From positions 416,001 through 480,000 of the forward strand of contig OZ253564.1 in the NCBI GenBank assembly GCA_965262915.1: DNA of 64,000 nucleotides, read 5' to 3'. Shown here one piece after another: positions 29,681 to 39,859 of this stretch. The position numbers and the translations under genes are program-made. The number at the start of each line of letters is the position of its first letter. Positions within the stretch are counted from its first letter, which is position 1. This DNA comes from Candidatus Spongiisociaceae bacterium (GTDB lineage Bacteria > Actinomycetota > Acidimicrobiia > Spongiisociales > Spongiisociaceae). Below the pieces are notes generated by a model. That model was not told where the DNA came from. It saw only the letters and a list, made by a program, of their open reading frames with translations, and searched no databases.

Positions 29681-30180
29681 GCGGCGATCCGGCCGTGCGA
29701 GACGATCGCCGCGAACGGACCGTGGAGCGAAATCGAGGCCGGTGGCCGGAGTCCCGGATCGACGATCTCGGCGCGACCAGGGGATCGTCTCCCGGTGGTC
29801 GTGCGGGCGGTCGGCCCCGGTGCCGACTGCCCTCCCTCGTGACTGCCCATGGTCCGGTAATCATGCTCGACAGAGGCGCCGGATGGACGGCCGAGGTCGA
29901 GATCCGCGAGTCGACCTATCTGCTGGCAACGGTCGAGGGCGATCCGCATCCCGACGTGCTCGTCCCGCTGCCGTTCGCTATCACCAGCCCGGTGTGGGTG
30001 GAGATTGACGGTAGGCCGGTGTACGTCGAGGAGGATGTCAGGTGGTGCCTGCGATGGCTGGACGAACTCGAGCGGGTCGTGGGAGAACACGGACGGTTCG
30101 AGGCGCCTGCCAGGCGTTCCGACGTGATGCGAACCATCGATCGGGCGCGTTCCTGGTACCGGGCGAGGCTGGACAGTTGA
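29681..30180 (+). pseudogene. Duplicated 3' fragment of the metallohydrolase gene at 35250-37304
   Basis: Near-identical to 36804-37304, with one indel; no 5' part. Confidence 0.9.
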
Positions 30181-30216
30181 CAGGGGCGGGCGGTGGTTGC
30201 ATGGCCCGTGTAGGTG

Positions 30217-31881
30217 TCAGATCACGGCGAGGGGCGCTAGCGCGTCGATATCGGTTGCGACGTCGACGATGGCAGGGCGTCCCGCTGCCAGTGCCCGTTG
30301 TATGGCGGGGCGGAGGTGGTCGGGCTTCTCCACCCGGATGCCCATTGCCCCCATTCCCTCGGCGAGCCGGGCAAAGTTCACGTCGGTGAAGGTCCAGAGG
30401 CGGCGTCCCTCCTGGGTCTGCTCCCCGCCGTAGGCCCGGTCGAAGCCGAGGGTGGACTGGTTGCCCGAGGAGTTGTTGTTGACCACTGTGACGGTGTTGA
30501 TGCCCCATCGAACCGCGGTCTCGACCTCGGCTATGTGGTACCAGAAGCCCGCGTCGCCGGTGAAGCAGACGACTGGGCGATCCGGGGCGGCGCACTTGGC
30601 GCCCAGCGCGGCGGGGAACGCCCAGCCGAGGTGTCCGGCGCTGCGGAGGTAGCTCTGGTCAGGTGTGCGGGTGTCGAACATGCCACCCATCCACATTCCG
30701 GCGTGGCCGGTGTCGACCACGGTGCAGGCGTCGTCGGGCACGAGAGCCGTCAACTCCGCGCAGATCCGCTCCGGGCGGATCGGTATCGCGTCAGACTCGA
30801 GATGACCCAGGTGCTGCTCTCGCCAGACGGTGACCTCCCGGCGTACTGCAGCCAGCCACTCCTCCCGGCCGGGACCCCGCGGGCCGGACTGTTCCAGGAG
30901 GGCGGCGAGGGCCGCACGGACATCGGCTTTGATAGCGACCTGCAGGGGGTAGTTGCGGCCCAACATCTCGGGGTCGATGTCGATCTGGATGGCGGGTGTC
31001 CCCGGCGCCGGAACCTGCCAGAAGTGGGTGGTCATGCTGCCGGTGCCCGACCCGACGAAACACACGAGGTCCGCCCGGTTGACGACCCGGTTCGCGGCGC
31101 TCCGCGAGTAGGTGCCCACGGCTCCCACGCAGAGGGGATGGTTTCCCGGAATCGTGTCCTTCCCGTTGAGGGAGGTCACCACGGGGATAGTGAGACGTTC
31201 TGCCAGGGCCACCAGCTCGCGTCCGGCCTGGGAGGTTCGGACGCCGCCGCCTGCCACGAGCACCGGCCGCGCAGCACGATCGAGCAGGTCCAAAGCCGCA
31301 GCCACGTCTTGCGGGTCGGGGAGGGGCCGCACCGGAGGCACGGAGGCGAATCGTGTGTCCACGGAGGGGTCGAGGTCGGCCCGTTCGCGGTCGATCTGGC
31401 CTTCGTTGCCGACGAACTGGAGGTGTACCGGTCCAGGACGGCCCGACACCGCCGAACGGAAGGCCTGGCGAACCAGATCGGGAATCTGTTCCACCGCGTC
31501 GACGACGGAGCTGAACTTGGTGACGTTGACGAAGGCGGGGAGGTCGTCCACCTCCTGGTAGACGCCGTTGTGGGCTGCGTCCGGGTCGCGACCACCGGTA
31601 AGGGCCATGACGGGAGAGTTGGCCAGGTGCGCGTCTCGGAGGCCGGCGGCCAGGTTGAGTGCCCCCACCGCCTGGGCCATGCACACTCCCGGGCGGCCTG
31701 CCATCCTGGCGTAACCGTCGGCCATGTACGCGGCCGGCTTCTCGCCGTGGGTGTGGATGCGCCGCACGCCGAACCGCTCGAGCTCGACGAGAGTACGCCG
31801 CAGGATGGCCGGCACCATGAAGACGTGCGTGACGCCGTACCCGTGGAGCATTTCGGCGAGAACGCGGGCACCGGTAATCAC
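30217..31881 (-). CDS. Thiamine-diphosphate-dependent enzyme (acetolactate synthase-like superfamily)
   Basis: GVTHVFMVP, HGEKPAAYMADGYAR, RPGPV, GDAGF..NN ThDP motif; start at GTG 31881. Confidence 0.9.
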   Translation of the reverse strand: MITGARVLAEMLHGYGVTHVFMVPAILRRTLVELERFGVRRIHTHGEKPAAYMADGYARMAGRPGVCMAQAVGALNLAAGLRDAHLANSPVMALTGGRDPDAAHNGVYQEVDDLPAFVNVTKFSSVVDAVEQIPDLVRQAFRSAVSGRPGPVHLQFVGNEGQIDRERADLDPSVDTRFASVPPVRPLPDPQDVAAALDLLDRAARPVLVAGGGVRTSQAGRELVALAERLTIPVVTSLNGKDTIPGNHPLCVGAVGTYSRSAANRVVNRADLVCFVGSGTGSMTTHFWQVPAPGTPAIQIDIDPEMLGRNYPLQVAIKADVRAALAALLEQSGPRGPGREEWLAAVRREVTVWREQHLGHLESDAIPIRPERICAELTALVPDDACTVVDTGHAGMWMGGMFDTRTPDQSYLRSAGHLGWAFPAALGAKCAAPDRPVVCFTGDAGFWYHIAEVETAVRWGINTVTVVNNNSSGNQSTLGFDRAYGGEQTQEGRRLWTFTDVNFARLAEGMGAMGIRVEKPDHLRPAIQRALAAGRPAIVDVATDIDALAPLAVI

Positions 31882-32074
31882 CGGGGAGACGTTAGTGGCT
31901 CTGGCTCTGCGCCGGCCGTCGGCTGCGCTTACCGGCCCGGAGCAGACCGAGTGTTCATGACGGAGGCGGGACGCGTAAGGGGGATCCCGTACCAGCGGCG
32001 GCAATGTTCCTCGATGTGCGGGTTCATGAGGTCTGCGAGTTCTCGCCGGCGCTGCGCCTCTGGAGTGGGCTTGT

Positions 32075-32350
32075 AGAGCCTTCGACGTGGTGGGCCTCAA
32101 GACCACGGCCGAGCAGGCGTTCGCCATGCTGCGCCCCGGGGGCACCGCCACCCTCATAGGCATGATTCCCCTCGGGGTCGAGATCTCTCTCCCGGGCGTC
32201 GATTTCCTCGATGAGAAGACGGTCAAGGGCTCGAACGGGGGATGTCGACCCGGTCCCGGGTCGACATCCCCCGGTACCTCCACCTCTACCGCAGCGGACG
32301 ATTCAAACTCGACGAACTGATCAGCCGTACACGTCCCCTCGAAGAGATCG
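32075..32350 (+). pseudogene. Zn-dependent alcohol dehydrogenase, C-terminal remnant
   Basis: FDVVG..AFAMLRPGGTATLIG..EKTVKGS, then after a frameshift VDIPRY..GRFKLDELISRTRPLEEI. Confidence 0.75.
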
Positions 32351-32354
32351 GGGC

Positions 32355-32658
32355 TGGACGCCGAAGGCCGCCGCGAGGTCCACACGTTCAGGAAGAGACA
32401 TTCCTCGCTCTTGCCCTCCCGGACCCGGTAACGGGCCGCCATTCCGCCCGTGGCGCCTCCTGGTTGCGGAGGCGCCGGACCGGGTTGGAGGCGCGGGCGT
32501 ACCCCGTCCCGGGGTGCAGGCGGGATCGGCTTGCGTACCGCCGTCTGCCGACTGGGCGCTGTGCAAGGAGAGCCCGCAAGAACATGATTCCCGTCCCCGG
32601 TCGCGCCTCGAACCACGCCTGTCGTGGTCGTTACCAGGGGATCGTCGGGCCTGGTCAC
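32355..32658 (-). pseudogene. Type-B carboxylesterase, N-terminal remnant
   Basis: VTTTTGVVRG start and SEECLFLNVWT motif; no catalytic GxSxG follows. Confidence 0.7.
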
Positions 32659-33003
32659 GCGCCGGTTCCTCCAGGCTGGGCCGGCTGCTGGCGGGCTCGC
32701 GGCCTGCATTCTCTCAAGAGGCTCCCTCGGAGAGTGCCCAACAATGACGGTGCTTGGCTCGTCGGTCCCCGACCCGGCATCCGCCGGTGGTCTACGGGCC
32801 GCCCGAGGCTCCTCCGGCACCCTTCGTGAGGCCCGCGAGCCGCCGGTGACCCCGCACGCGGAGCGCTCCGGTGCCCGTCCCCGGTGAAGGTGCAGGGAGC
32901 GGGCTTCAGGATGACCCACCGGCCCGGAGGTCGACCCTCCGGTCGGGTCCTCGACGCGCTTCCTATGCTGGGCTGATCCGGGAGCCGCCTAGGGAGTTGA
33001 TCC

Positions 33004-34668
33004 ATGTCAGATACGACGGGCCTTGTGGCCGGCTGGCCCAATATCGTCGTCATCCTCGCTGACGACCTCGGCTTCTCTGACCTCGGCTGCTACGGCTCCG
33101 AGATCGCCACGCCCGCGATCGATGCGCTCGGCTACGGTGGCCTGCGTTTCACCCAGATGTACAACTCTGCACGGTGTTGCCCGTCGCGAGCCGCCCTGCT
33201 GACCGGCCTGCACCCGCACCAAGCCGGCATCGGGCACATGACATACACCATGTCGGACACGGATCCCGCCTACCAGGGATTCCTCAACGACTCGTGCGTG
33301 ACCATCGCGGAGGTGCTCCGGGCGGCGGGCTACCGCACGCTCATGTCGGGCAAGTGGCATGTGGCGCGCCAACGACCCATGGCGGAGCGCGCCTCCTGGC
33401 CCGACGATCGCCCCGGCTACCCCCTGCCCACCGAGAGAGGCTTCGACGAGTTCTTCGGCACCATCGGTGGGGCCGGTTCGTACTACAAGCCCACCTACAT
33501 GATGCGAAACGACGATCTGCTCGAGCAGAACGAACTCGACTGGTATTACACGGATGTGATCACCGACCATGCCCTCGACATGGTGGCCGAGGCGACCGGC
33601 GACGGGGTGCCCTTCTTTCTCTACCTGGCCTATACCGCTCCGCACTGGCCGCTGCATGCCATCGAGGAGGACATCGCCCGGTACGAGAGCCGCTACCGGC
33701 AGGGATGGGATGCGCTCCGGACCGCTCGCCACGAGGAGCTGAAAGCCGGCGGCCTCGTCGATCCCCGGTGGCCGATCAGCCCCCGGGACCCGACCTCCTT
33801 TCCATGGGAGGAGTCGACGTACCCGGATTGGGAAGCCCATCGGATGGCGGTCTACGCCGCCCAGATCGATCGCATGGACCAAGGCGTTGCCAGGCTGGTT
33901 GCCGAACTGCGCAGGAGCGGCCAACTCGACAACACCATCATCTTCGTGCTCTCGGACAATGGCGGGGCCGCCGAGTTTCTCGCCGAGGACGGCCCCATGC
34001 GGCCCGGCTGGTTGGCTCATGACACCCCCGACGGACGGCCGATCCACTACGGGAACACGCCCGATCTGAGCCCCGGCGGACCGGAGACGTTCCAGAGCTA
34101 TGACATCTGCTGGGCGAATGCCTCGAACACGCCGTTTCGCCGGTTCAAGGGATGGGTACACGAAGGGGGGATCTCGACGCCCCTGATCGTTCACTGGCCG
34201 GGCGGTATTCCCTCGCCGGGGATCGTGCGCACCCCGGCCCACATCATCGACATCATGCCGACCTGCCTCGAGGTCGCAGGTGCGGACTATCCGACTCACT
34301 TCGGCCCCAACGACATTACCCCGTGCGAGGGTCGGAGCCTGGTACCCACCTTCACGCGTCACGATTGGCAGCGGCCGGGGTCGTTGTTCTTCGAGCACGA
34401 GGGCTACCGGGCAATACGGCGGAAATCGTGGAAGCTCGTGAGCGCCGACCTGAGGAGTTGGGAGCTGTACCGGATCGAGAACGATCGGACCGAGAGCACG
34501 GACCTCTCCGGGCGGGAGAGGCCCCGGGTCATCCGGATGGCGCGAGAATGGAACGAGTGGGCGAGCCGGGTCGGGGTCAGCTTCACGCTGCGCGAGGACC
34601 TCGCCCAGTTGTTCGAACTGGAACGGAGGGGGGTCGACCAGGGACGCGCCCGGCTACGGCGGGCGTGA
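33004..34668 (+). CDS. Arylsulfatase (formylglycine-dependent, Cys type)
   Basis: PNIVVILADDLG, CCPSRAALLTG, GKWH, APHWP, SDNG, EGGISTP. Confidence 0.95.
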   Translation: MSDTTGLVAGWPNIVVILADDLGFSDLGCYGSEIATPAIDALGYGGLRFTQMYNSARCCPSRAALLTGLHPHQAGIGHMTYTMSDTDPAYQGFLNDSCVTIAEVLRAAGYRTLMSGKWHVARQRPMAERASWPDDRPGYPLPTERGFDEFFGTIGGAGSYYKPTYMMRNDDLLEQNELDWYYTDVITDHALDMVAEATGDGVPFFLYLAYTAPHWPLHAIEEDIARYESRYRQGWDALRTARHEELKAGGLVDPRWPISPRDPTSFPWEESTYPDWEAHRMAVYAAQIDRMDQGVARLVAELRRSGQLDNTIIFVLSDNGGAAEFLAEDGPMRPGWLAHDTPDGRPIHYGNTPDLSPGGPETFQSYDICWANASNTPFRRFKGWVHEGGISTPLIVHWPGGIPSPGIVRTPAHIIDIMPTCLEVAGADYPTHFGPNDITPCEGRSLVPTFTRHDWQRPGSLFFEHEGYRAIRRKSWKLVSADLRSWELYRIENDRTESTDLSGRERPRVIRMAREWNEWASRVGVSFTLREDLAQLFELERRGVDQGRARLRRA

Positions 34669-34732
34669 GTACCGCTCCCCGCACGGCGCCCCGTGGCGAG
34701 GCGCCAGTTGTGGAGAATGAGAGGAGGCTCGG

Positions 34733-35089
34733 TTGCGCCGCGTGGTCAAGATCATGACCGAGGAGGAATGGGAGAACTCGTTGGGCTCGGGGAGGGTATT
34801 TGTGTCCTCGTCGGAGAACGACGTAAGGGACGGCTTCATTCATTGCGCGTCCGCAGAACAGGTGACGGGTTCGTTGACGAGGTGGTACTCGGATCAGGCG
34901 AAGGTGGTGATCGTCGAGATCGATGCCGACAGGTCGGCCGCCGACGTGAGGTGGGAGCCCAACGCAGAGGGAGAGCTCTGGCCCCACATCTACGGTTCGA
35001 TCACCCCGGAGGCCGTCGCCGGCGCCCGGATGGCCATACGGCAGGAGAATGGAACCTTCCGGCTCGGCGCAGACCTCCACGGCGGGTGA
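34733..35089 (+). CDS. DUF952 family protein
   Basis: DGFIHCAS..QV and WPHIYGSI motifs. Confidence 0.85.
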   Translation: MRRVVKIMTEEEWENSLGSGRVFVSSSENDVRDGFIHCASAEQVTGSLTRWYSDQAKVVIVEIDADRSAADVRWEPNAEGELWPHIYGSITPEAVAGARMAIRQENGTFRLGADLHGG

Positions 35090-35116
35090 CCGGTCCTGCC
35101 GGACCTCGGCCCGGCT

Positions 35117-35221
35117 TAGGAGAATGCTGAACAATGACGATTACTGTTGGCCTGTCGCTCGCTGACCAGGCATTTTATGGTTGAGCGACGGGCCCCTTGT
35201 GGATTGCTCAGCACTCCCCCA
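35117..35221. mobile_element. MITE-like element, copy E
   Basis: IRs GGAGAATGCTGAACAAT / ATTGCTCAGCACTCC; stem GGCCTGTCGCTC..GAGCGACGGGCC around CTGACCAGGCATTTT. Confidence 0.7.
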
Positions 35222-35249
35222 GACCCCGCCGCCGGAAAGGAGACGCACC

Positions 35250-37304
35250 GTGTGCTGTGACGTTCCGGATTTCGAACTGCCGGAATCCATCCAGGAGATG
35301 GTTGCGCAGTACCGGTTGCGGATCGGGGCACCGGTCGACCGGTGGGGCCTCGACGCCTGGGCGTCCCCCGCGGCGGCGACGGGTGAAGAACTCGCCGGAG
35401 ATGCACGATTCCGGCGGGCCGTCGGCGTCCGGCAGGCGAGTATGGCGGGCTCGGCGTCACTCGAGGATCTCTACGGACCCGACGCCGTCGGAGTCGTGGT
35501 CCGGGACGCGCTGGGGGGTCGGATCCCGCCCGGGCTCGGCGTCGTCACCGTTCTCGGGAACGCGGTCCGGCTCGATTCCGGGGCGCCCCGCTCACACCTC
35601 CCCGGTCGGCCGGCGCGGGCGTGGCTGATGGTCGACTCATCCGTCGGCAGGTCCGTGCCGGTTCGTGTCGGCAATAGCGAGCGGGTGGTACCACCGCGGG
35701 GAGCACTTCTCACCGAGGTCGCTCCCGGAACCCTGTCGTCGGTCGACGGGCATCCGGTCGCAGTGGAGAGCCTGTTCACTCGAAGCGAGCCGGCGGTACT
35801 GAGTTTGCGGGCGCTCGCGCTCTCCCGATGGTCGGTGGTCGACGAACGGGGCTGGGGCTGGTTCCCGCAGGGTTGCCTCGAGAAGTACGACTACCACGGG
35901 CGTCCCTTCTTCCATGCCGGCGAGGTCAACTTGCCGGTGCCGTCGGGCCGGCTTGAGGTCTCCGTGACCAGGGGTATCGGCTGGACCACCGAGCGGGAGA
36001 CGTTATCGGTGGAACCCGGCGAGCAGCGCACGGTCGAGATGGCGCCGGGCATACGCTTCGATCCGGGAGAGAAGGGCTGGTACGGCGCCGATCTTCACGT
36101 GCATATGAACTACGGAGGGAACCAGGTTTGCGAGCCGGCAGACGCGGCCCGTATGCAGGTGGGCGAGGGACTCGACTTCATGAGCCTGCTCGCCGCCAAC
36201 ATCTCCACGGCCCTGGTGTACGACCGGGAAGCGCTCGAGGCATGGCCGGAGCGGGACCTGCCGTGGTCCGGCGCCAAGTACAGGGCGAGGATGGGCGTGG
36301 AGTACCGCAACGACCTGCTCGGGCATTTCCACGTGACGGCGCCGGCAGGCCGGCCGGAGCGGTTCGCCAGCGGGCACGGGAACCGTCCGGATTGGCCACC
36401 GAACTCGGAAGTTGCCCGTGAGTACCGGGCCGCCGGAGCGACCGTCGGCTACTGCCACCCGGTATATCCCGAGAGCATCCCGTGGCAGCCCGGAGCGGTT
36501 CACCACGCCGATCCGCTCGATCGGGTCATGCGGAGGACCAACCCGCGCAACGTGGAGGCGAGGGAGATCGTCGCGGATGCCGCCCTCGGATTGGTCGACA
36601 GTCTCGATGTTGTCTCGAATGCGGACGACCGGGCCGGAGCGGTGCTGTATCGTCGGTTGCTGGGAACGGGGCTCCGGCTGGCGGCAACGGCAGGCACCGA
36701 CGCGATGCTCTCGGTACGCCACAGCGGTGTTCGGTCGAACCCTCCCGGCTGGTCACGGGTGTACGTGAGGGCAGGGGAGCACCTCGACGCCGACTCCCTC
36801 AAGGCGGCGATCCGGCGGTGCGAGACGATCGCCACGAACGGACCGTGGATCGAATTCGACGTCGGTGGCCGGGGCCCCGGATCGACGATCGCGGCGCGAC
36901 CGGGGGAGCGGCTCCCGGTGATCGTGCGGGCGGTGGGCCCCGGCGCCGACCGGCCCTCCCTCGTGACTGCCCATGGTCCGGTAGTCATGCTCGACAGCGG
37001 CGCCGGATGGACGGCCGAAGTCGAGATCCACGAGTCGACCTACCTGCTGGCAACGGTCGAAGGCGATCCGCATCCCGAAGTGCTCGCCCCGTTGCCGTTC
37101 GCGATCACCAGCCCGGTGTGGGTGGAGATCGACGGTAAGCCGGTGTGCGTCGAGGAGGATGTCAGGTGGTGCCTGCGCTGGCTGGACGAACTCGAGCGGG
37201 TCGTGGGAGAACACGGACGGTTCGAGGTGGCCGCCCAGCGTTCCGACCTGATACGAACCATCGATCAGGCGCGCTCCTCGTATCAGGCGAGGCTGGACGG
37301 CTGA
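35250..37304 (+). CDS. CehA/McbA-family (PHP-like) metallohydrolase
   Basis: AAGGAG RBS; GWYGADLHVH, GVEYR..GH, YCHP, AGTDA, TNGP, TSPVW motifs. Confidence 0.85.
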   Translation: MCCDVPDFELPESIQEMVAQYRLRIGAPVDRWGLDAWASPAAATGEELAGDARFRRAVGVRQASMAGSASLEDLYGPDAVGVVVRDALGGRIPPGLGVVTVLGNAVRLDSGAPRSHLPGRPARAWLMVDSSVGRSVPVRVGNSERVVPPRGALLTEVAPGTLSSVDGHPVAVESLFTRSEPAVLSLRALALSRWSVVDERGWGWFPQGCLEKYDYHGRPFFHAGEVNLPVPSGRLEVSVTRGIGWTTERETLSVEPGEQRTVEMAPGIRFDPGEKGWYGADLHVHMNYGGNQVCEPADAARMQVGEGLDFMSLLAANISTALVYDREALEAWPERDLPWSGAKYRARMGVEYRNDLLGHFHVTAPAGRPERFASGHGNRPDWPPNSEVAREYRAAGATVGYCHPVYPESIPWQPGAVHHADPLDRVMRRTNPRNVEAREIVADAALGLVDSLDVVSNADDRAGAVLYRRLLGTGLRLAATAGTDAMLSVRHSGVRSNPPGWSRVYVRAGEHLDADSLKAAIRRCETIATNGPWIEFDVGGRGPGSTIAARPGERLPVIVRAVGPGADRPSLVTAHGPVVMLDSGAGWTAEVEIHESTYLLATVEGDPHPEVLAPLPFAITSPVWVEIDGKPVCVEEDVRWCLRWLDELERVVGEHGRFEVAAQRSDLIRTIDQARSSYQARLDG

Positions 37305-37309
37305 GAGGA

Positions 37310-37475
37310 GCGGCTGGATTCTCGCCGTGGGTGTGGATGCGCCGCACGCCGAACCGCTCCAGCTCCACGAGAGTACGCCGCAGGATGGCCGGCACCACCA
37401 AAACGTGCGCGACGCCGTACCCGTCCAGCATCTCCGCAAGGGCTCGAGCGCCGGTCATCATGCTGGGGGACGTTA
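37310..37475 (-). pseudogene. Duplicated 5' fragment of the ThDP enzyme gene (31730-31895)
   Basis: Encodes MTGARALAEMLDGYGVAHVLVVPAILRRTLVELERFGVRRIHTHGE, then breaks. Confidence 0.9.
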
Positions 37476-37488
37476 ACGGTCGCGGCTC

Positions 37489-37783
37489 GTCCCTGGGATG
37501 GATCCGGTCAGGACGGTGCCAGCCCTTTCGGGTTGACCGCCGTGGGTGGCGTCTCGCCTGCCAGGGCGGCGAGCAGGTTGCGTACGGCCAGCTCCCGCAT
37601 CCGTCGCCGGGTCTGCGTGGTGGCGGTACCGATATGGGGCAAGCACACCACGTTGGGCAGGTCGAGGAGTGGTTGGCCGGGGGCGGGAGGTTCGGTCTTG
37701 AGGACATCGAGGGCGGCGCCAGCGATGGTGCCTGTTCTCAGGGTCTCGGTCAGCGTCCGCTGGTCGACCAGCTCGCCCTGGGC
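37489..37783 (-). pseudogene. Duplicated 3' fragment of the 2-hydroxyacid dehydrogenase gene (38863-39157)
   Basis: High identity to 38863-39157 including the stop and downstream GGATCCATCCCAGGGAC. Confidence 0.9.
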
Positions 37784-37804
37784 CGTTCCCCGGCTGTCGA
37801 GGTC

Positions 37805-37834
37805 AAAAAAGACCCGGCCCTAAGTGGGCCGGGT
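37805..37834 (-). terminator. Intrinsic terminator
   Basis: 9-bp stem ACCCGGCCC/GGGCCGGGT with 5-nt loop, followed on the minus strand by C then T6. Confidence 0.85.
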
Positions 37835-37879
37835 GGGTAACCGCCCCTGATACAAGCGCATCAGGAGCTAAGCGCTTGT
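37805..37879 (-). ncRNA. Candidate ~75-nt structured sRNA downstream of the NYN gene
   Basis: Extended -10 TG-T-TATATT at 37892-37884; hairpin GCUCCUGAU/AUCAGGGGC with loop complementary to the 5' end; terminator. Confidence 0.55.
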
Positions 37880-37928
37880 GCCCAATATAACACAAGTATT
37901 AGCCCGGGGACACGGAGGTGGCGTCGGG

Positions 37929-38666
37929 TTACCACCGTGGGAGACGCTGGTATGTTCCCACCGTTTCGGGAAGCTGACACGAGTGGAAATCATTGGCTGC
38001 CAACCGATACCACCAATGCCCGCCGACACCGTCATCGTGTCTGCCGCGAAGGTCCCCGGCCGTCGGGTTCGTGCTCGGGTTGACGACGCCCACCGGAACC
38101 CGTTGGCGGGCTAACCGTATCGGGAAGCGCAGGTCACTGTCATTCGAGATAACAATCGCAGCGTCCATTCGCCTGGTCAACACGTCGAACAGCAGATGGG
38201 AGGCTAGGTTCACGTCAGTCGCTTTCTCCTCCTCCCTTAGGTACGACACCATGAATCGGGCGTCGTGAACGGCCGCACCGGTACCGTCCTGCACCATCAC
38301 CGGCCATCGAGACGTGTGGACAACCGGCCGGCCGTTCCTGTCCCGCGTCGCCAACAGTCCGGTCTTCCAGCGAGCCGTGAACCTGCCCTTCTCAAGGTGA
38401 TCAAACGAGCGGTTAGCTTTCAATGCGGCCACATACACCTGCTGCCGTTGGTGCTCCGCAGGGTGGATATTCCCGTCTATGAACGCAGTGCAGTACACCA
38501 CACGCTGAAGCAGCGCACCTTGCTTCAGCCAGTCGGAACGGCGTGCTAGCAGCCGTTCGCTAAGTTGACGCAGGTCAAGCCACCGCCACCCTCGCGCAGC
38601 TCTACCGAAGTGGCTTCGACCTCCGTAGTACAGATTCAGACCATCGACGTACACGCCAACCTTCAT
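37929..38666 (-). CDS. NYN-domain (LabA/DUF88, PIN-fold) putative RNase
   Basis: VYVDGLNLYY, EEKATDVNLA, ISNDSDL acidic motifs. Confidence 0.92.
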   Translation of the reverse strand: MKVGVYVDGLNLYYGGRSHFGRAARGWRWLDLRQLSERLLARRSDWLKQGALLQRVVYCTAFIDGNIHPAEHQRQQVYVAALKANRSFDHLEKGRFTARWKTGLLATRDRNGRPVVHTSRWPVMVQDGTGAAVHDARFMVSYLREEEKATDVNLASHLLFDVLTRRMDAAIVISNDSDLRFPIRLARQRVPVGVVNPSTNPTAGDLRGRHDDGVGGHWWYRLAANDFHSCQLPETVGTYQRLPRW

Positions 38667-38881
38667 GAACTCTCCTGACAGGGTGCGCTCGCCGCTCCCA
38701 TCGAGGAAGCAACCATACAGAGGCATAGGCTCCTCGGAGAGCAAACCCAACGGCCCCAGCCGGCCGAGCGGAAGGAGATCAGAGCATCGGCGAGAAAGGA
38801 CGTAACGCCAGACGTCGATCCCGCCAGCGTTTCACCGGCTAGCTGTGACAACCGGGGATGTTGTCCCTGGGATGGATCCGG

Positions 38882-39859
38882 TCAGGACGGTGCCAGCACT
38901 TTCGGGTTGACCACCGTGGGTGGCGTCTCGCCCGCCAGGACTGCGAGCAGGTTGCGTACGGCCAGCTCCCGCATCCGTCGCCGGGTCTGGGTGGTGGCGG
39001 TACCGATATGGGGCAAGCACACTACGTTGGGCAGGTCGAGGAGTGGTTCGCCGGGGCCGGGGGGTTCGGTCTCGAGGACGTCGAGGGCGGCGCCGGCGAT
39101 GGCGCCGCATCTCAGGGCCTCGGTCAGCGCCCGCTGGTCGACTAGCCCGCCCCGGGCGGTGTTGATGAGGTAGGCGGTGGGCTTCATGAATTGCAGCTCT
39201 TCCGTACCTATGAGATGCCGGGAGGCCTCGTTCAGGTCGGCGTGGAGCGTGACGAAGTCCGAGTGGCGGAGCAACTTGTCGAGAGGGCGGTACCGGCTGG
39301 CCGGTGCCTTCGGATGAGGGTCGGCGATCGCGTCGTACCACAACGTGCGCATCCCGAAGGTCTGCATGCGGCGGGTGACCTCCTGGCCGATACGGCCGAA
39401 CCCGACGACGCCGAGGGTCTTGCCATCGACATCGGTGCCGAGATCCGGCGGCGGCTCGCCCCGCGCCCATCCCCCCGACCGAGCGTACCGCTCGTTGTCG
39501 AACAGCCGTCTCGCCAGCGAGAAGATCATCATCATGGTGAGATCGGCCACCGCCGCGGTGAGAACGCCGGGGGTGTGGCAGACGACGACGCGCCGTCGTG
39601 TCGCCTCGGCCATGTCGATCGTGTCGTAGCCGACGCTGGCCGTGGACAGGACCCGCATCCGTGGCGCCGCCTCGAAGAACTGCTTGTCAACCGGCGTCAG
39701 GGGATTCAGGAGAACACCGTCGGCGTCACCGATTGCATCGAGTTGAGCGCTCCGAACGGCTGCCATGTCCGCGAAACGGACTTCGTGGCGTTCCTCGATC
39801 GCGGAGACGAGGTCTGATTCGAAGGCCGGGAAGATGCACACCGTGAGTCGCTCGACCAC
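38882..39859 (-). CDS. D-isomer-specific 2-hydroxyacid dehydrogenase (glyoxylate/glycerate reductase-like)
   Basis: VGYDTID, GFGRIG, INTARG, LDVLETEP, PHIG. Confidence 0.93.
   Translation of the reverse strand: MVERLTVCIFPAFESDLVSAIEERHEVRFADMAAVRSAQLDAIGDADGVLLNPLTPVDKQFFEAAPRMRVLSTASVGYDTIDMAEATRRRVVVCHTPGVLTAAVADLTMMMIFSLARRLFDNERYARSGGWARGEPPPDLGTDVDGKTLGVVGFGRIGQEVTRRMQTFGMRTLWYDAIADPHPKAPASRYRPLDKLLRHSDFVTLHADLNEASRHLIGTEELQFMKPTAYLINTARGGLVDQRALTEALRCGAIAGAALDVLETEPPGPGEPLLDLPNVVCLPHIGTATTQTRRRMRELAVRNLLAVLAGETPPTVVNPKVLAPS

Follow-up and report, generated by a model that had tools for sequence, protein, structure and literature searches.

In toxin-antitoxin (TA) systems of type III, an endoribonuclease has as its partner a small non-coding RNA whose unit measures ∼35 nt, and small RNAs (sRNAs) of the 3' untranslated region (3'UTR), of the DapZ and MicL type, have an internal promoter and share the terminator of the mRNA. 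In the phage-defence module AvcID, an sRNA, AvcI, is described as the inhibitor of the deoxycytidylate deaminase AvcD (PMC10511110). On the protein side, HEC-09 is presented as a MARF1-like NYN protein with three active-site aspartates that is embedded in Hma systems (Payne et al., bioRxiv 10.1101/2024.01.29.577857), and a review of the PIN superfamily lists the bacterial PF01936 groups as being of unknown function and the stand-alone bacterial NYN (LabA/COG1432-like) proteins, which number in the thousands, as having no assigned function (PMC5499597). Here we analyse a 64,000-nt stretch of the genome of a Candidatus Spongiisociaceae bacterium (contig OZ253564.1, positions 416,001 to 480,000; hereafter the window), in which a gene for a predicted NYN-fold nuclease is followed by a gene for a very small structured RNA, and we compare this pair with its relatives across the phylum Actinomycetota. 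These comparisons mark the RNA as a separate, conserved gene that is tied to the NYN family, has its own promoter, occurs in either orientation relative to NYN and has a covarying stem.

In the window, the gene for the NYN (PIN-like) nuclease occupies positions 37929..38666 of the minus strand, running from an ATG at 38666 to a TAA at 37931-37929 and encoding 245 amino acids (aa). The extended -10 box of the RNA gene (TG-T-TATATT; 37884..37892, minus strand) lies 36 nt past the NYN stop codon and is in register with the TTGACA-N16-18-TAnAAT promoters of orthologous RNAs; a consensus scan of the window found no full -35/-10 promoter, the RNA gene having the extended -10 alone. The RNA gene, which has here a long form of ∼73 nt (37805..37877), consists of AAGCGCU, a first hairpin, the GGUUACCC linker, a second hairpin and a U tract. 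Its constituent parts, all on the same strand, are a single-stranded, palindromic 5' AGCGCU (37871..37876) that is conserved in 16 long-form RNAs, hairpin 1 of 9-11 bp (37843..37868), which follows AAGCGCU and precedes GGUUACCC, and a 9-bp GC stem (37812..37834), which was also listed by a terminator scan, followed by CUUUUUU. The part shared throughout the phylum, composed of the UUACCC leader, the ACCCGGCCC/GGGCCGGGU stem and the U tract (37805..37845, minus strand), matches the covariance model described below with 42.7 bits (E 4e-10). The order of NYN gene, extended -10 box, structured RNA and 9-bp terminator with U tract had been given in a preliminary description of the locus, and every one of its sequence details that was checked is confirmed, including the observation that the loop of hairpin 1 (GCGCUUGU) is the exact complement of ACAAGCGC at the 5' end of the RNA. 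The same description had favoured the minus strand, and folding agrees, with -51.4 kcal/mol (z -5.8, with none of 200 shuffles as good) against -41.1 kcal/mol (z -3.8) on the plus strand.

The RNA matches no catalogued family in Rfam 15, the comparison that had been suggested: a search at permissive E-value found no family at its gathering threshold, with best scores of 19.6-26 bits against thresholds of 45.7-112. One of these sub-threshold matches, to Hammerhead_HH9 on the plus strand over the terminator hairpin (37778-37854; 26 bits, gathering score 52), was rejected as a chance match because the catalytic core is unmatched. A scan for tandem repeats between 37400 and 39200 found none.

For a view beyond the window, we collected 593 NYN relatives in species genomes, with cultured Microbacterium, Kribbella and Curtobacterium strains among the carriers, and analysed the best 80 of them. 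Nearly all of these 80 loci have a short element made up of a -10 box, ∼7 nt and (C)AUACC-ACCCGGCCC-loop-GGGCCGGGU-U tract, and the core order conserved across Actinomycetota is a -10 box, a AUACCACCCGG leader, a covarying GC hairpin and a U tract. A covariance model (R1), built from 31 copies of the element, finds a match at E≤1.1e-4 within ∼150 nt of the NYN stop codon at 70 of the 80 loci, 64 times on the NYN strand and 6 times in convergent orientation. The conserved, covarying structure that the preliminary description had proposed to look for beside NYN homologues is thus found. Across 86 R1 matches, in an alignment that is fitted to R1 and whose sequences are mutually related, 99.9% of the cells are paired and 7 of the 9 pairs have changes on both sides; double-change cells number 31, compared to 3.3 ± 1.6 in shuffles, none of the 500 shuffles reaches the observed values, and pairing in slid controls stays at ≤57%.

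A TANNNT hexamer lies 10-14 nt ahead of the stem in 49 of 78 elements, many of the others having either CATAAT, which this pattern misses, or the long form, and the convergent RNA copies retain a promoter of their own. From the position of the -10 box, the 5' end would fall ∼5 nt before the stem, making the short RNA ∼34 nt long, with only ∼5 nt unpaired. At protein identities of 27-55%, the leader is still conserved as a single-stranded ACC(A/G)CCCG: at 37% identity, locus L126 has TTGACG-17-TATATT, then ...GUACCCACCCCG-hairpin-U6, and at 27% identity, locus L180 has a convergent two-hairpin RNA. As most orthologues have the ∼34-nt, one-hairpin RNA, we take the 73-nt RNA of the window to be a clade-specific extension. 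Of the separate ∼75-nt RNA gene that was proposed initially, the conserved promoter and the covariation therefore uphold the separate gene, and the size applies to the window's own clade rather than to the orthologues at large.

Within the window's taxonomic family, NYN orthologues at 64-84% identity are found in 7 of the 28 other genomes, and in all 7 the RNA element follows the NYN stop codon, preceded in 3 of them by a TTGACA-N16-18-TAnAAT promoter. In the consensus promoter scan, both RNA copies of locus L011 score 12/12 and both copies of L012 score 11/12. When the window, the orthologous loci, the second copies and the orphans are taken together, all 16 long-form RNAs have a common fold: a single-stranded 5' AGCGCU, hairpin 1, (G/A)(G/A)UUACCC, hairpin 2 and the U tract. 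Within the 5' AGCGCU, the GCG shows no variation, and the C and U after it are almost invariant. Hairpin 1, which is confined to this family, keeps its stem in 16 of 16 despite a widely varying sequence, and its loop in the other members of the long-form clade is of 3-4 nt (GUUA, GGAA or CUUA). The pseudoknot that had been envisaged between this loop and the 5' end is accordingly not a conserved feature of the RNA, and we rejected it as such: the complementarity is present in the window and its closest relatives only, and the short forms have no hairpin 1 at all.

Two further observations concern the RNA genes. The 5' AGCGCU of the long form is self-complementary, so that RNA-RNA pairing or reading by a dimeric protein is possible. 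In addition, some loci have two RNA genes and a consensus promoter for each of them, namely L011 (699-739 and 1366-1406), L012 (1102-1142 and 1382-1422, with the flank after the RNA duplicated too) and L056 (3782-3822 and 5198-5239); L011 also has a third promoter-like site at 630-601.

The association also holds when searched for from the RNA side. Across the 29 genomes of the family there are 16 strong R1 matches, 14 of which adjoin NYN genes, a pseudogene or remnants: 8 adjoin an intact NYN gene, 2 are second copies at an intact-NYN locus, 1 adjoins a frameshifted NYN gene, 3 adjoin a C-terminal NYN remnant (aa 162-245, 218-245 and 191-239) and 2 are orphans. Two complete genomes have exactly one R1 match each, adjoining NYN. 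An exact 17-mer scan of a metagenome collection yielded 74 loci, 39 of which were chance matches without a hairpin and were dropped before counting; of the 35 full elements that were left, 5 have too little flanking sequence. Among the 30 assessable elements, some of which are near-duplicates of each other, 28 adjoin NYN or its remains: 17 a full NYN gene, 4 one cut by the contig end, 5 a partial best match despite there being room for more, and 2 only a trace, while 2 have no NYN. Altogether, 9 of the 30 have no intact NYN, and most remnant and orphan RNA copies have retained the -10 box. The RNA thus often outlives NYN, and an intact NYN gene without any detectable RNA is rare, an asymmetry that is expected of an antidote. 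In metagenome loci L238 and L262, the final Trp codon of NYN together with its stop codon (TGG TAG) makes up the extended -10 box of the RNA gene (TGGTAGTGT), so that the two genes overlap.

The protein encoded in the window is predicted to be a NYN-fold endoribonuclease. Its reading frame has an alternative upstream start, a TTG at 38750 that would give a longer product, and we prefer the ATG at 38666 because the homologues are mostly of 243-245 aa (among the 120 listed) and the family alignment begins there. NYN (PF01936) is the only Pfam assignment and scores 32.8 bits (cut-off 24.2; E 1.1e-7). In 30 homologues, D8, E147, D151, N153, N175, D176 and D178 are invariant, corresponding to an intact acidic site. 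The protein also has an insert at residues ∼95-145 and a conserved C-terminal extension (GVGGHWW...CQLP...GW), for which a search of the family profile against solved structures gave no relative (0 matches). In its AF2 model (pLDDT 89), the protein adopts a PIN-like α/β fold resembling solved NYN structures: the top Foldseek match is 2qip (E 1.1e-3, probability 1.00), followed by the MARF1 NYN structures 5yaa (probability 0.96) and 6fdl (probability 0.94), with weak E-values throughout. Among defence and phage collections, it matches the PADLOC candidate model HEC-09 in two stretches (E 2.3e-27, 94 bits) and, in PHROGs, only phrog_7929, a family of unknown function; the NCBIfam search gave 0 matches, and phage records contain a single distant prophage match of 28% identity. 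The window's genome encodes two distant NYN paralogues elsewhere (G000:C1:4564899-4565402 and 4928424-4928606), 38-44% identical over parts of their length, and the R1 search of the paralogue loci L003 and L004 in this genome gave no match. A second, weaker R1 match in the same genome lies at G000:C1:760426-760465 (27.6 bits, E 2.3e-4).

The surroundings of the pair mark it as an acquired and mobile module. As the preliminary description had pointed out, the cassette sits between two copies of the 3' end of a dehydrogenase gene, which we find to be a 298-nt direct repeat, 92% identical, comprising this 3' end plus 19 nt: one copy belongs to an intact 2-hydroxyacid dehydrogenase gene (38882-39859; repeat at 38863..39160, minus strand), and the other is displaced (37489..37786, minus strand). 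With only 92% identity, the repeats are not a fresh target duplication. The idea of an acquired module, put forward at the same time, is strengthened by an empty site in two congeners that have no NYN, where the dehydrogenase gene is followed after ∼95 nt by the gene for a thiamine pyrophosphate (TPP) enzyme (31880-30245 in the window). We therefore regard the ∼7 kb that are absent there (31880..38881), with the cassette at their edge, as an insertion. Besides the cassette, the insertion contains a sulfatase gene (33004-34668), a DUF952 gene (34733-35089), an open reading frame (ORF) of 707 aa without a Pfam match (35181-37304) and fragments paralogous to nearby genes (37310-37475 resembles 31730-31894 with 86% identity, and 37100-37313 resembles 29976-30189 with 90%). 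Contigs from two presumed RNA runs and two metagenome runs were short and gave no informative coverage of the RNA; a low-depth joint from 37732 to 39200 in a contig of a divergent relative was too weak to count as evidence.

The unit that moves is smaller than this insertion. In blastn comparisons with loci L006, L007, L013 and L008, which lie in four other genomes, homology to the window's cassette extends from 38690-38826 to 37804-37806 and ends exactly at the U tract, and since the copies cease to be homologous there, the mobile unit would be ∼1 kb long and consist of the leader, NYN and the RNA gene. Its 5' limit is the NYN leader and promoter region (38667..38826, minus strand), which is conserved between the cassette copies of other genomes. 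No protein gene accompanies it consistently: among 150 of the 165 flanking ORFs called by a crude GC3-based script in the nearest flanks of 76 loci, there was no conserved neighbour. In the window, the neighbours are the dehydrogenase, TPP enzymes and the sulfatase, and NYN is not embedded in a defence system; those of orthologues are mostly housekeeping genes and, in a minority, ParA, resolvase, transposase, integrase, Abi_alpha, Schlafen-AlbA_2, PIN and GmrSD.

The NYN protein is also encoded on 139 plasmid records. On mycobacterial plasmids of 18-41 kb, NYN comes after parA and a small parB-like gene, and in the two such plasmids that were read, a resolvase gene follows directly in one and two genes further on in the other; both have R1 matches (E 8e-14 and 3e-12). 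These par/resolvase regions, together with the HEC-09 match, suit a role in TA or defence. More distant NYN genes (29-34% identity; L110, L111 and L122-L124) are found on plasmids of E. coli, Klebsiella, Xanthomonas, Leptospira and Phaeobacter, the smallest of 3.5 kb, next to a divergent helix-turn-helix (HTH) gene (L110 and L111) or a divergent hypothetical gene (L122-L124). R1 has no match at these proteobacterial, Leptospira and enterobacterial genes, for which no de novo hairpin search was made, and the NYN gene and its divergent neighbour are possibly a protein-regulated version of the module.

Starting from the gene pair, the RNA's own promoter, the covariation of the stem, the two-way linkage, the mobility and the contexts, all of which are established here at the level of sequence, we infer a mechanism of binding, inhibition, toxicity and a trigger. 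The reading we favour, to which we give a probability of roughly 45%, is that of a type III-like pair in which an RNase is the toxin and an RNA its antidote, possibly serving as a defence or abortive-infection module. It would be a self-contained, mobile two-gene module of ∼1 kb that encodes a NYN-fold endoribonuclease and a dedicated tiny RNA, the latter with a presumably constitutive promoter and an intrinsic terminator of its own. By way of its conserved AUACC/UUACCC leader, together with the lower half of the GC stem, the RNA would bind the NYN protein and keep it inactive; if the supply of RNA stopped, on loss of a plasmid or when a phage shuts off transcription, free NYN might then cut cellular or phage RNA. 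Whether the antidote concept can be generalised is more doubtful, and we propose only tentatively that NYN with a dedicated promoter-to-terminator hairpin RNA represents a class of toxin modules with RNA antidotes, or of anti-phage modules, that is both new and widespread and would be a fourth, structurally unrelated type III-like branch found on ∼1-kb cassettes and small plasmids throughout Actinomycetota.

Several points weigh against an antidote. A conserved hairpin with a U tract can also simply be a terminator, and the NYN mRNA would end in the RNA's hairpin wherever the two are on the same strand, as the terminator is then shared. Antitoxins are usually labile, and a 9-bp GC-rich hairpin is probably stable. 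The seed copies of R1 were picked by a regular expression, which accounts for part of the invariance of the model, and the related sequences in it are not independent. Matches to R1 are weak or variant at 7 of the 80 loci (L069, L081, L082, L086, L091, L092 and L095), and L029 and L093 are truncated at a contig edge; of the 78 assessable loci with an intact NYN, only L054 yields no match whatsoever, neither in the locus nor in the whole genome, even though its catalytic residues are intact. Moreover, HEC-09 is reported to have protected E. coli against none of the phages tested (bioRxiv 10.1101/2024.01.29.577857), and that it could be cloned there does not suggest strong toxicity. As for L054, a long, different hairpin (GCGUCCCGGCCAGCCCC...GGGGCUGGCCGGGACGC, then U5) lies upstream of its NYN gene (2925-2975), after a TAGTTA box, and could be a variant form of the partner RNA or else the terminator of katG.

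Linkage, promoter and covariation would look no different if the RNA were a true partner of NYN but not its antidote, acting instead as a specificity or activating subunit, as a scaffold or as a decoy that tunes the feedback of NYN on its own mRNA. The location of the element in the 3'UTR of the NYN transcript at 64 of 70 loci and the lack of reported toxicity in the available account of HEC-09 are in line with such a partnership, which we nevertheless consider unlikely: RNA genes that outlive NYN are easier to reconcile with an antidote, or with a neutral terminator, than with a cofactor that has no use without its enzyme, and a programmable guide is disfavoured because the leader is conserved and not variable. 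The element could also act purely in cis, terminating and insulating the cassette, its promoter giving a product without function in trans or just blocking read-through or antisense transcription. The core is indeed a textbook intrinsic terminator, the cassette's 3' boundary coincides exactly with it, and covariation of the stem is expected of any terminator under selection. A plain terminator is however insufficient to account for a leader that is conserved down to 27% protein identity, a promoter kept at fixed spacing and with perfect consensus at some loci, convergent and orphan copies that keep promoters of their own, and two or more RNA genes at some loci, which makes a role in cis alone improbable.

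A role at the DNA level could also accommodate the loss of homology between copies after the U tract, the 298-nt duplication that flanks the cassette and the empty site of the congeners; the hairpin would then be where a mobile cassette ends or recombines, with NYN acting in its mobility. We hold this to be quite improbable, since the 5' end has no matching element, the repeats have diverged too far to stem from a recent duplication of the target, the NYN domains studied so far are RNases (PMC5499597), and a conserved promoter speaks for RNA as the product. A type I-like, antisense repression of the NYN mRNA would draw on two complementarities in the window, between CUCCUGA of hairpin 1 and the NYN ribosome-binding region and, as an idea that arose post hoc, between AUACCACC and the Trp-Trp-Tyr codons. 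Over 75 loci, however, the pairing of the leader with its own mRNA does not exceed that of shuffled leaders (median shuffle fraction 0.45, with values of ≤0.05 at 3 of the 75 loci), the best pairing sites are scattered and the short form offers only its few unpaired nucleotides; the AUACCACC pairing was rejected along with the antisense idea, to which we assign a very slight chance.

To our knowledge, stand-alone bacterial NYN genes have been without a known function since 2006. An RNA partner that is conserved and dedicated to them would provide a testable mechanism for these proteins, and may bear on the lack of defence by HEC-09 if the construct was made without such an RNA or the right phage was not tried. 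Few of the dedicated gene products that have been proposed would be smaller than this RNA of ∼34 nt, which is in essence a promoter joined to a terminator, and gene finders and sRNA screens would miss it. Should the RNA prove to be an antidote, the notion of type III would broaden to cover a new nuclease fold and the high-GC Gram-positives, and actinobacterial genetics would gain a compact cassette for plasmid stability or defence.

Our search of the literature on NYN in connection with toxin-antitoxin, RNA antitoxins, sRNAs or anti-phage defence found no paper that describes a NYN-RNA pair, and the closest systems each share only some of its traits. The window protein matches the model of HEC-09 and shares with it the MARF1-like character and the three active-site aspartates, although HEC-09 is embedded in Hma systems and the window's NYN lies outside any defence system; the main text of the report on HEC-09, supplements aside, mentions no RNA partner (bioRxiv 10.1101/2024.01.29.577857). 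As in 3'UTR-type sRNAs, the promoter lies at or just past the end of the upstream ORF, even with the NYN stop codon inside the -10 box at some metagenome loci, and the terminator is shared in 64 of the 70 loci. In contrast to these sRNAs, the RNA accompanies a single gene family throughout a phylum, is also found convergent (6 of 70), duplicated and orphaned, and gives no antisense signal. AvcID offers a precedent for an sRNA that neutralises a toxin unlike ToxN, but its toxin is a deaminase and its RNA, judged by description only, is unrelated. In type III TA, the RNA is made as tandem repeats that are cut by the toxin and lies upstream, separated by a terminator, whereas here a single promoter-to-terminator RNA without tandem repeat lies downstream in either orientation, has no conserved pseudoknot and accompanies a protein of NYN fold (the only Pfam assignment) that is not ToxN/AbiQ-like. 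The NYN-RNA module is not a member of ToxIN, CptIN or TenpIN, with which it nonetheless has in common, as far as these are described in the sources used, the pairing of an endoribonuclease with a small non-coding RNA and no protein antidote, an RNA unit of nearly the same length as the ∼34-nt short form, and an occurrence on plasmids and in defence contexts.

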